Counted from the stretch's first letter, positions 38,043-41,374 are shown. The stretch: 64,000 nt of DNA from Eledone cirrhosa (GCA_964016885.1 OZ024745.1:6696001-6760000); one strand, 5' to 3'. The notes: generated by a model from the sequence alone, not told the origin. Program-made: numbers and translations.

Positions 38043-38134
38043 ACGAAGGAAATGTGGTAAGGAACCAGGTGGACCATAACGCACCAAAGTACTCAATACT
38101 TGAGGTAGTAGAGTGGGTAATAGGAACCAGTAAG

Positions 38135-38228
38135 ACCCCGACAGCTGAGCTCAAGCCGTTTCGACGGCTAATTCTGGACTAAATGAACATTTATCCTGGT
38201 ATTTAAATAGCCGATCTTCTCAAGGGGT
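38135..38228 (-). ncRNA. Type I hammerhead ribozyme, U3:A8 core variant (copy 1)
   Basis: Exact reverse complement of 39476-39569. Confidence 0.8.
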
Positions 38229-39475
38229 AATTCCATATATGGTCAAAGTGATTGTCAAAAATCAGTAGTAATTCTGTGGTTGCAAATTAGTAGGGGAGAT
38301 GGTGGCTAAACCTGCCAGTAGGAGAAAGAGGGGAGGGGGTGGAGTAGACCCAATCAAGCGTTGGTAGTGCCAGCTACAGCTGGGCATGAGGTCAAAGAAG
38401 ATACATTTCGTACGAAATAAAGGTAGAATACGGAGAAATAAGTTCAGAATCCACCCCGCCCAGAAGAAAAGCGAAGCAAGAAATACTGAAACGAAAAAAT
38501 AAGGCATAAGTGCCACTAAGAAATATAGAGGGCACAGAGAATAGTGGGAGCGGTCGGAAAAGGGGGGCAAGTATCCGGGGTCTAAGCCAACTGCTATAAA
38601 GGGCGGAGTCCGCCAAATCTATCAAAGACTAGGGGAGGGGGGAGTGGGGGTACTAAGGCTACATGGGGCCAAAGGGCAGCCTCGGGTGGGCGAGAAAAGA
38701 CGCCGACAAAGGAGAAGAGCTGGGGTAGAAGGACAAAGGAGAGAGGGGGGAAGGAAATAAAGGATGCGATAAATGAATACAAAAGGATTCTGAACTTATT
38801 TCTCCGTATTCTACCTTTATTTCGTACGAACTTTCATGTAGCTTGTTTTAGATCTTTTAGAGTTAGCATTAGTATATATTTTTCTCGGGACTCAGAATTA
38901 TTATGTCGTACAAGTTCACTTTGCTGCACTGGGTCGTTGCTGGCCCGGGATGGAAACCTTTATTGTTTATTTCGTGGTAGTCTCTTTAGTATTTTGGCCC
39001 CTTTTGTTGACCAGTCACCGTATCATTTACGTACTTATACCTCTTAAAAGGGTCCTTGCCTAATTCGTCCCACCTAGTTCTATACTTATTTCCTTATTTA
39101 TTTATTTATTTATTTATTTACTTCTTTCTTTCTTTCTTTATTTTATTCTCGCCTAACAATAGCCTGACACCTAGGTCGTAGAATTTAATTTTTTCTTTAC
39201 ACTTATTTGCTTTTCTTCACTCTCAGTATTTTTTCTTTCCTATTTCTACCCCCCATTGTTCTACCTACCGTTCCGACTTCCTCCCCCTCCCCCTCCCCTG
39301 TATCTTCTTTGACCTCATGCCCAGCTGTAGCTGGCACTACCAACGCTTGATTGGGTCTACTCCACCCCCTCCCCTCTTTCTCCTACTGGCAGGTTTAGCC
39401 ACCATCTCCCCTACTAATTTGCAACCACAGAATTACTACTGATTTTTGACAATCACTTTGACCATATATGGAATT

Positions 39476-39569
39476 ACCCCTTGAGAAGATCGGCTATTTA
39501 AATACCAGGATAAATGTTCATTTAGTCCAGAATTAGCCGTCGAAACGGCTTGAGCTCAGCTGTCGGGGT
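39476..39569 (+). ncRNA. Type I hammerhead ribozyme, U3:A8 core variant (copy 2)
   Basis: Stem I ACCCC/GGGGU; core UUGAGAA (39481-39487); stem II GA(U)CGGCUA/UAGCCGUC; GAAA (39542-39545); stem III CGGCU-UGAGCUC-AGCUG; cleavage triplet GUC (39562-39564). Confidence 0.82.
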
Positions 39570-39584
39570 CTTACTGGTTCCTAT

Positions 39585-39706
39585 ATATATATATATATAT
39601 ATATATATATATATACAAATATATATATATATATATATATATATATATATATATATATATATATATATATATATATATATATATATATATATATATATAT
39701 ATATAT
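39585..39706. repeat. (TA)n microsatellite with one CAAA interruption
   Basis: Read directly. Confidence 0.97.
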
Positions 39707-39795
39707 AAAATCAAGGGAGTGTAAACACAGAAAATATCTTTAAAATAATAATAAATAATTAAATTCCAAAACAATTCACTGTACTTACAATATGT

Positions 39796-39876
39796 GCCTT
39801 TACCGCGGTTTTAGATCCCAAATAAATAGACAATCCAAGTGGATTTCCATTGAGAAAGAGATCATCGTCAGAAGGC
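39796..39876 (-). ncRNA. Type I minimal hammerhead motif, family 2, with GAAA mutated to AAAA
   Basis: Minus strand: GCCUU-CUGACGA-UGAUCUC...GGGAUCU-AAAA-CCGCGG-UA-AAGGC. Palindromic stem III and GUA site are intact, G12 is lost. Confidence 0.7.
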
Positions 39877-40290
39877 TTTTCTCTCTCGGAGAATATAGAA
39901 TTCCAGAGTTCAAATTACAAACTAGCGCCATACCAAAGTGCCTCAGAATGAATCAGTTATGGTTAGGAACGCGTGCAAAGGCGAAAGCACGTTGGACAGG
40001 TCAATCTAATGCTACTAAAAATAGAAGCTATACGAACGACCGAAGGTGTCTCTACCATTGGGGAGAATAATAATAAAAGTATGTGTCCTATATGTAATTA
40101 ATACATACAGGGATACAAGTATAGTCCGTATGCCAGTGTGGTTCAATAGCAAGTTAATAAATTAACAAGCCAGAACATATAAAATCAAGGGAGTGTAAAC
40201 ACAGAAAATATCTTAAAAAATAATAATAAATAATTAAATAATAAATAATTAATTTGAACTCGGGAATTTTATATTCTTCGAGAGAGAAAA

Positions 40291-40371
40291 GCCTTCTGAC
40301 GATGATCTCTTTCTCAATGGAAATCCACTTGGATTGTCTATTTATTTGGGATCTGAAACCGCGATAAAGGC
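40291..40371 (+). ncRNA. Type I minimal hammerhead motif, family 2, with a stem III mutation
   Basis: GCCUU-CUGACGA-UGAUCUC...GGGAUCU-GAAA-CCGCGA-UA-AAGGC. Core boxes are intact, but CCGCGG has become CCGCGA. Confidence 0.75.
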
Positions 40372-40568
40372 ACATATAGTAAGTAAAGGGAATTTTTTGG
40401 AATTTAATTATTTATTATTATTTTTTAAGATATTTTCTGTGTTTACACTCCCTTGATTTTATATGTTCTGGCTTGTTAATTTATTAACTTGCTATTGAAC
40501 GACACTGGCATACGGACTATACTTGTATCCCTGTATGTATTAATTACATATAGGACACATACTTTTAT

Positions 40569-40692
40569 TATATATATATATATATATATATATACTCCAA
40601 CTATATATATATATATATATATATATATATATATATATATATATATATATATATATATATACTCCAACTATATATATAGAGAGAGAGAGAGA
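40569..40692. repeat. Compound microsatellite (TA)n-CTCCAAC x2 followed by (GA)n
   Basis: CTCCAAC at about 40595 and 40662 within TA runs. Confidence 0.95.
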
Positions 40693-41374
40693 TTACAGTA
40701 ATCAAAGTTCAGTTTAAGTCATTTATTTGCTTACAATTGTTTCCTCCAGACCGAGGTTTGGATTCTTCGGAGCAACTATTTATAACATACTTGACCTCCT
40801 TTTCAACCCAAGAGACACATAAAACATATGCGCATATTGATCAACAGTGGGGTGACATTCATCAAATGATATAGCATGGCAATTTACATATAAAGGTTAC
40901 AGGATAAAAATAAAATAAAAACAAGAGTGAAAACAAGAGTGAAAATAAAGATAAACATGAAGCGTTGGCAGTCTATGAAGATAAAGCAAGAGGAAAGCTT
41001 AGAGTAGTCAGTGTATGAAACAATCTCCCGTGTAGCATGCATGCGTGTCTTATCTATAAATGATTAGAGTGCGTCAGAATGATATTTGCAGGGTCAGGCA
41101 GTTGAAGCAGGCAATCGATCTTATTATGTAGGCTGAATTATTAAGTCATTTATTCTCATACATCTGTATGATATACAGTCTCGGATGCGGGGAAACACCA
41201 AAATATCAAAAACCTTCAACATACTATAAATCTTATTGTATCGTAGGCAAGGCCGTACCACTGTCCCTGGTCACACCACCACTCCCATAAACCATGAGAC
41301 GCAATATATATATAGAGAACACGCGTCTATCGTATAATTCGCGGTGGTTCAGCATATAGTCAAGCTATAAACCG
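40693..41374 (-). mobile_element. Probable Penelope-like / retrozyme-like insertion 3 (single terminal segment with a hammerhead near its 3' end)
   Basis: Unique ~680-bp non-coding segment between two parts of the same (TA)n-CTCCAAC compound repeat. It carries a hammerhead motif about 35 bp from its left end. Confidence 0.5.
40727..40775 (-). ncRNA. Type I minimal hammerhead motif, family 3, U4C core variant
   Basis: Minus strand: UUGCU-CCGAAGA-AUCCAAACCUCGGUCUGGAG-GAAA-CAAUUG-UA-AGCAA. Stem I UUGCU/AGCAA, stem II UCCA.AC/GU.UGGA, palindromic ACAAUUGU stem III, GUA site. Confidence 0.72.

Follow-up and report, generated by a model that had tools for sequence, protein, structure and literature searches.

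Hammerhead-bearing insertions in a TA microsatellite of Eledone cirrhosa: truncated Hydra-type Penelope-like elements, a retrozyme-like unit and the copying signatures they carry

Introduction

Penelope-like elements (PLEs) of the Hydra clade (Craig et al. 2021, PMC8557442) have one open reading frame (ORF) encoding a reverse transcriptase (RT) with a C-terminal GIY-YIG endonuclease, and a sense-strand hammerhead ribozyme near the 3′ end. Nearly all of their families insert in (TA)n, where tandem and inverted truncated copies are found. Diagnostic of the clade are an RWK motif, DKT in place of DKG, a CxCx5C linker and the lack of a CCHH motif; a length generally below 3 kb is descriptive rather than diagnostic. 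Here we analyse a 64,000-nt stretch of the Eledone cirrhosa genome (GCA_964016885.1, OZ024745.1:6696001-6760000), referred to as the window and numbered from its first nucleotide, in which hammerhead motifs lie in three adjacent insertions that we call families A, B and C.

The role of hammerheads in PLEs is contested. Cervera and de la Peña (2014, PMC4209133) proposed that a circular template produces seamless multimers, whereas cleavage was dispensable in vitro for Poseidon, a PLE of a different clade from Anolis carolinensis (Frangieh et al. 2024, PMC11167929). Retrozymes are believed to depend on PLEs for their mobility: the non-long-terminal-repeat retrozymes (Cervera and de la Peña 2020, PMC7229834; Li et al. 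2026, 10.64898/2026.07.22.740005) are ORF-less, AT-rich units of 150–450 bp with one type I hammerhead per tandem unit, and PLEs occur alongside them.

Results

Families A and C are truncated ends of autonomous Penelope-like elements

The window insertions of families A and C are the 5′-truncated ends of autonomous PLEs whose intact RT and GIY-YIG ORFs lie elsewhere in the 3.0-Gb assembly. Family A (38043-39581) matches, at 99.5–100% identity, a 3531-bp unit that is found in head-to-tail arrays and holds a 717-aa ORF with RT and GIY-YIG domains. Family C (40688-41377) matches at 98.2% a 4323-bp unit with an 819-aa ORF, the product of which is 39% identical to that of family A. Because they are 5′-truncated, both window insertions are non-coding. 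For a 207-aa RT segment of family A, all 150 scored matches were 99–100% identical and 149 were free of stop codons.

Each of the two proteins is encoded by a single ORF, with YRDD in the RT followed by IY..YIG in the C-terminal endonuclease. The best homologue carries PF01541, which we take to be the GIY-YIG domain; a direct Pfam scan gave no family match for either ORF, and a profile search of the PDB none below E 0.67. Homologues are widespread, with 2,049 of 8,000 scored candidates reached at E up to 1e-20 and identities of 38–54% among the matches listed. Both proteins have DKT, the CxCx5C linker and an endonuclease without CCHH, and one Cys instead of two between the GIY and YIG halves. 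Insertion is in (TA)n, and a sense-strand type I hammerhead lies in the pseudo-long terminal repeat (pLTR). By these motifs, A and C are Hydra-clade PLEs. They are not Naiad PLEs: their endonuclease is C-terminal rather than N-terminal, they have DKT rather than DKA, and hammerheads, which Naiad lacks in canonical form, are present.

The fit to the clade has exceptions. Both proteins read RWR in place of RWK, both units exceed 3 kb, and their variant hammerhead cores (U3-A8 in A, U4C in C) match none of those listed in File S2 of PMC8557442. The N-terminal half of Hydra-1_Obim, an octopus family in the supplement of that paper, aligns motif for motif with A by eye, but its hammerhead differs.

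Side observations were made on both families. The family C ORF at L073:6512-9001 (minus strand) contains two Asn-rich low-complexity insertions that are absent in A and in the homologues, and at G000:C1:172895203-172904618 the family C tail motif is spaced by 4,697 bp, longer than the 4,323-bp unit. A 21-nt motif (90%) is common to the family A 3′ untranslated region (UTR; window 38925-38945) and a common flanking repeat (window 36345-36365), which suggests that the UTR captured a fragment of host repeat.

Five hammerhead matches represent three independent motifs

Scanning the entire window on both strands with a type I descriptor gave five hammerheads, exactly those located in the initial annotation; among 300 shuffled versions of the 5.4-kb non-TA region the mean was 0.027 matches and the maximum 1. 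The motifs at 38135-38228 (minus strand, predicted cut between 38140 and 38139) and 39476-39569 (plus strand, predicted cut after 39564) belong to the two arms, 100% identical, of a single 286-nt inverted repeat. Both family B motifs, 39796-39876 (minus) and 40291-40371 (plus), fall within a single 215-nt inverted repeat. Since the A and B pairs are inverted duplicates, the independent motifs number three and not five, as first counted. The division into three families stands, and so does their lack of common sequence: the non-coding parts have no significant DNA similarity, with a best E of 0.59 for B against A or C.

Described at first as complete, the motifs are so in both A copies only, which have the core and three-helix topology; their core is of the U3-A8 type, loop II is long and loop III palindromic. 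In family B, 39796-39876 carries G12A (AAAA in place of GAAA) and is predicted to be inactive, and in 40291-40371 one of the stem III pairs that most of the family keeps is disrupted. The C motif (40727-40775, minus) has a palindromic stem III, a U4C core that is family-wide and a helix II mismatch private to the window copy against most family C copies; U4C reportedly lowers activity in vitro (PMC3088659). Point changes likely weaken or kill the predicted cleavage of three of the five window motifs, and three of the five passed a strict scan. Elsewhere, B members mostly keep the intact hammerhead form and in their majority the type I topology, with an intact core and stem III in 14 of 30 sampled loci, while the full C fold is present in 21 of 30 loci taken in genome order; the window copies of both families are degenerate. 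An Rfam search detected none of the motifs as a hammerhead, whether with the gathering threshold or with E values of up to 10.

Palindromic stem/loop III, U3-A8 covariation and opposite-strand pairs 100–700 bp apart are features also of the PLE hammerheads in PMC4209133, where loop II is much shorter than in A and B.

The families are abundant and their clustering is ordinary

Exact-motif searches of the genome found 10,654 copies for A, 924 for the C tail and 176 for the B core, with none for the reversed controls; further probes found 22 copies of C (covering the private variant of the window) and 100 of the B tail. The families target (TA)n, bearing out the earlier proposal of multi-copy, hammerhead-bearing, Penelope-like-related retroelements that target TA microsatellites. 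A linked RT and GIY-YIG ORF was found for A and C, and not for B. At least ten other type I hammerhead sequence types, among them more U3-A8 cores, occur in the fetched loci, and the genome appears to host many hammerhead-bearing families. Several of these stand side by side in other fetched loci, so clustering in a TA tract is ordinary.

That the locus is a special island in which three non-autonomous retrozyme families accumulated is very improbable. Family B would fit, and the window holds neither an ORF in these insertions nor, in a search with homologue proteins, any RT homology. Yet A and C are 98–100% identical to ORF-bearing units, which refutes their non-autonomous status, and multi-family TA tracts exist elsewhere. 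The initial annotation had taken the insertions for non-autonomous retroelements, encoding no recognisable protein, that had accumulated in one tract. Of this, the three adjacent TA insertions are confirmed, but nothing marks the tract as special; protein-coding sequence is missing from the window but not from the parents of A and C; and non-autonomy would seem to apply to B only, A and C being truncated autonomous Hydra-clade PLEs.

Family B is an ORF-less unit that wraps onto itself

In many independent loci the family B unit wraps onto itself with a same-strand period of 474–496 bp, slightly above the range of retrozyme units, and the head-to-tail joint is also present in contigs of sequencing run X1. 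Its longest Met ORFs have 53 and 92 aa, homologue proteins gave no tblastn match to it, and its circular fold has a z of about −3.1 against 40 shuffles, which is at most suggestive of a circular RNA. B looks like a non-autonomous, retrozyme-like unit. It shares with retrozymes the ORF-less, AT-rich tandem unit with one type I hammerhead and neighbouring PLEs; it differs in forming inverted insertions of 1–2.2 units in (TA)n with a PLE-type two-end signature (below), rather than long arrays.

Hydra RT fragments lie within 1.5 kb of B in 7 of 27 genome-order loci, with direct fusion in L122 only, where a fragment of a third Hydra-type RT (1476-1896; 56% to A across 50 aa) runs straight into a B unit downstream of it, both having the same orientation. 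This fusion could mark B as the pLTR of a yet-unfound autonomous element, all the more as the B loci examined are a sample. We consider that reading quite unlikely, given that the RT fragment stops mid-ORF, as after a template switch or deletion, and that the self-wrapping period recurs in so many independent loci. The L122 fusion is possibly a template switch pointing to the helper of B, and because of this fusion and the two-end signature that B has in common with A and C, it is likely that a protein of the Hydra type moves B in trans.

Two fixed 3′ ends are paired in inverted insertions

The three insertions are separated by (TA)n, as annotated. The tract at 37929-38042 precedes family A, whose left arm (38043-38405, minus strand) is the 3′ end of the 3531-bp unit and terminates at a long end, about 97–100 nt past the cleavage site. 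It is followed by a piece of 3′ UTR from further upstream in the unit (38407-38783, minus), about 470 nt of the unit being skipped, and by the right arm (38785-39581, plus), the last ~800 nt of the unit with a short end about 17–20 nt past the cleavage site. After the A–B spacer, a (TA)n tract at 39582-39707, the left arm of B (39703-40250, minus) comprises about 1.15 periods of the 474-bp unit with a short end 94 nt past the cut, and the right arm (40250-40571, plus) has a long end 206 nt past it. A (TA)n/(AG)n tract (40569-40687) leads to the last ~690 nt of family C (minus strand), made up of 3′ UTR, hammerhead and short end, and an interrupted (TA)n tract (41375-41694) lies to its right.

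This arrangement is general. Two fixed 3′ ends, both downstream of the predicted cut, characterise every family. They lie at about +17–20 and +97–100 in A, +94 and +206 in B, and +44–49 and +215 in C, each on a TA-like stretch beyond which host (TA)n begins; both A ends were also seen in sequencing-run contigs. Among 50 family A insertions, 47 had both ends visible and 44 of these paired a long with a short end (42 called by script and 2 by eye), the exceptions being one short/short, one read-through/short and one long/near-short. All eight family C insertions examined showed the same pairing, as did 14 of 23 of family B, two being duplicates of one insertion; the remaining B insertions have one end broken, lack a TA flank or lie at a locus edge. 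Those duplicates (L038/L079 and L078) lie about 14 kb apart on C3, and their flanks match but are inverted with respect to each other; a single insertion was probably duplicated along with its surroundings.

Within an insertion the arms resemble each other far more closely than arms of different insertions. Differences amounted to 8/11,554 within against 468/104,683 between insertions in family A, and 19/3,615 against 457/34,822 in family C, with none of 2000 permutations as low in either; in family B they were 144/2,191 against 3,242/35,501 (none of 3000 permutations). The two arms of one inverted insertion also have private variants in common.

With good confidence, we propose that the RT/GIY-YIG protein would nick both strands of (TA)n, that each strand would prime one complementary DNA (cDNA), the two starting at different internal sites of what is most simply the same RNA, and that the joining of the two cDNAs would give the inverted repeat. 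To our knowledge PLE RTs lack RNase H, which would allow a second RT to reuse the template. Copying of one arm off the other by fold-back was rejected, as the short-end arm is often the longer (L022, L025, L027, L028) and cannot supply the tail.

Poseidon behaves alike in several respects (PMC11167929): two internal RT starts downstream of the hammerhead define a tail, and both strands of an AT-rich target are cut and extended. Its starts, unlike those here, are alike between the strands and have no homology to the cut DNA; here nearly every inverted insertion has one short and one long end, each located where the element has a short TA-like segment. For PLEs, a tail confined to one end has been noted, with a general length of 30–40 nt (PMC8557442) against roughly 80–170 nt here.

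An unusual junction joins two A arms in L299:2171-5742 (G000:C1:91489170-91492741): it holds about 65 nearly perfect repeats of a 55-nt stretch of the ORF. These might reflect reiterative copying by the RT in the manner of telomerase, or else a minisatellite that expanded later.

Most family A copies end inside loop II of the hammerhead

The 3′ half of the family A hammerhead has 10,654 exact copies in the genome and the 5′ half 2,148. About 80% of the 3′ halves, those without a 5′ half, form palindromes of about 190 bp with an end fixed in loop II. A sample of 40 loci, all from the initial part of contig C1, comprised 20 chosen as close inverted pairs and another 20 chosen as apparent singles. 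In this sample 58 of 61 arms stop 28–45 nt upstream of the cut. The mode, at −41, coincides with the A of an initiator-like motif, a TATA-like motif stands 29 nt above that A, and loop II contains the two motifs. In the window these elements span 39495-39526 (plus strand), with the TATA-like element at 39495 and the A of the initiator-like element at 39524, and mark the 5′ boundary of most A copies and the putative transcription start. A similar boundary is seen in older subfamilies of A. Nearly all palindrome junctions differ (32 of 33 are distinct), so each palindrome arose separately; this also rules out self-propagating mini-elements. Such palindromes, in their thousands, were not found in the portions of PMC8557442 consulted, and the literature searched, which did not extend to most subscription journals, contained neither mini-palindromes ending inside a PLE hammerhead nor a start site in loop II.

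The upstream hammerhead of longer copies is treated otherwise. We selected 38 ORF-bearing A copies as perfect RT matches, hence young (two further loci were whole-array stretches). Their arms reach the loop II boundary zone in 31 cases and pass it in all 31; six stop earlier and one could not be aligned.

We think it reasonably probable that family A transcription starts inside loop II, yielding an RNA without the 5′ half of the ribozyme, and that priming near the 5′ end of this RNA would produce the ~190-bp palindromes. Transcription starts within pLTRs are known for Penelope and Chlamys-3. The boundary might instead be a roadblock to the RT, such as a hairpin, a bound protein or a branch point. 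It does coincide with the 3′ strand of an inner loop II hairpin in the predicted fold, and the A ends spread across 17 nt, as a roadblock might produce. However, an obstacle that halts about 80% of first passes would be expected to halt the majority of second passes as well, and none of 31 stopped, which speaks against a roadblock and for two classes of RNA; more stable helices in the tail are passed, too. A roadblock is accordingly an unlikely explanation. Family A was likely copied from two RNAs, one linear and starting inside the ribozyme, the other seamless and possibly circular.

A separate locus, L179 (G000:C1:25028937-25029975), holds two halves of the family A hammerhead on one strand, separated by 962 bp, with read-through beyond the long end and an upstream end at the loop II boundary. 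This suggests an internally deleted, non-autonomous derivative of family A.

Templates of the long and multimeric arms

Both priming sites lie downstream of the cut, so the template of a long arm must span the cut site and be either uncleaved or re-ligated. From a linear RNA with two tails that started in loop II one would expect full-unit arms that stop at the boundary, a pattern shown by 0 of 31, and cleavage at the downstream hammerhead would remove the 3′ tail. Hammerhead cleavage and ligation into circular monomers, on the other hand, could produce long and multimeric seamless arms. We put this at even odds, the alternative source being uncleaved tandem read-through RNA.

That alternative keeps the same identities for the three families and dispenses with the hammerhead: long and tandem arms would be copied from uncleaved read-through transcripts of tandem loci, started upstream of the element. 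Tandem arrays exist as possible sources, any template spans the cut site in any case, and anole Poseidon hammerhead mutants insert normally in vitro, no reads beginning at the cut (PMC11167929). We nonetheless regard this reading as doubtful, if a serious contender. Given a loop II start, it too would lead one to expect the missing boundary-ending arms; neighbouring units are near-identical, with 0–1 differences per 3 kb in L021 and L030 and four plus a gap in L029; and differences between pLTR copies do not recur in the two C tandems compared.

A more specific form of the circular-template account is tentative. Family A may have a promoter nested in its own hammerhead, so that a capped, loop II-started RNA would be unable to cut its 5′ site alone. 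A downstream copy would supply the missing half, both sites would be cut, and ligation of the monomer would give a 3.5-kb circle, the true template of full-length and multimeric insertions. A dimeric RT would prime the two strands of the target, using two positions of a single RNA. The linear RNA, when primed, would meanwhile scatter thousands of ~190-bp palindromes through the genome.

Other repeats in the window

Two unrelated 31-bp satellites flank the region, at 1-32453 (about 1,048 copies) and 43750-64000 (654 copies), and 26-, 12- and 48-bp minisatellites lie between them. A perfect 28-bp inverted repeat with a 21-nt loop occurs at 36056-36132; its Rfam microRNA matches are sub-threshold only.

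Discussion

We are fairly confident in the overall explanation of the locus: truncated ends of two autonomous Hydra-motif PLEs, A and C, stand next to an ORF-less unit, B, that is likely trans-mobilised, in a TA microsatellite. Several points weigh against it or its parts. The clade assignment of A and C comes from motifs and a by-eye comparison, and no parent element for B came to light, whether by blastn to families A and C, by tblastn with homologue proteins or when the sampled loci were inspected. Gene conversion, or a pair of RNAs transcribed at a single source locus, could also account for the variants shared between arms. In the only PLE tested in vitro, start sites were alike on both strands, hammerhead mutants still inserted and unprocessed RNA was the main substrate (PMC11167929). 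As to the start in loop II, the TATA-like motif differs by 1–2 bases in older A subfamilies, an untemplated cap G is clear at 1–2 junctions only, family C has no such boundary (the core is kept in 27 of 30 loci), and the family B copies examined have no sharp one.

Hammerheads and (TA)n targeting in Hydra PLEs have been published (PMC8557442), and retrozymes are part of the known picture, so the island as first framed is largely known biology. What is added is the very young and very abundant family A, whose insertion junctions record the mechanism, and a retrozyme-like unit that has the two-end signature in common with its likely helpers. The genomic evidence presented here bears on the circular-template proposal of PMC4209133. 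With sharp predictions, an intact ORF and thousands of junctions, family A makes the contested role of PLE hammerheads testable; should the nested promoter and the 3.5-kb circle prove true, they would be direct genomic evidence that these ribozymes serve to make circular templates.

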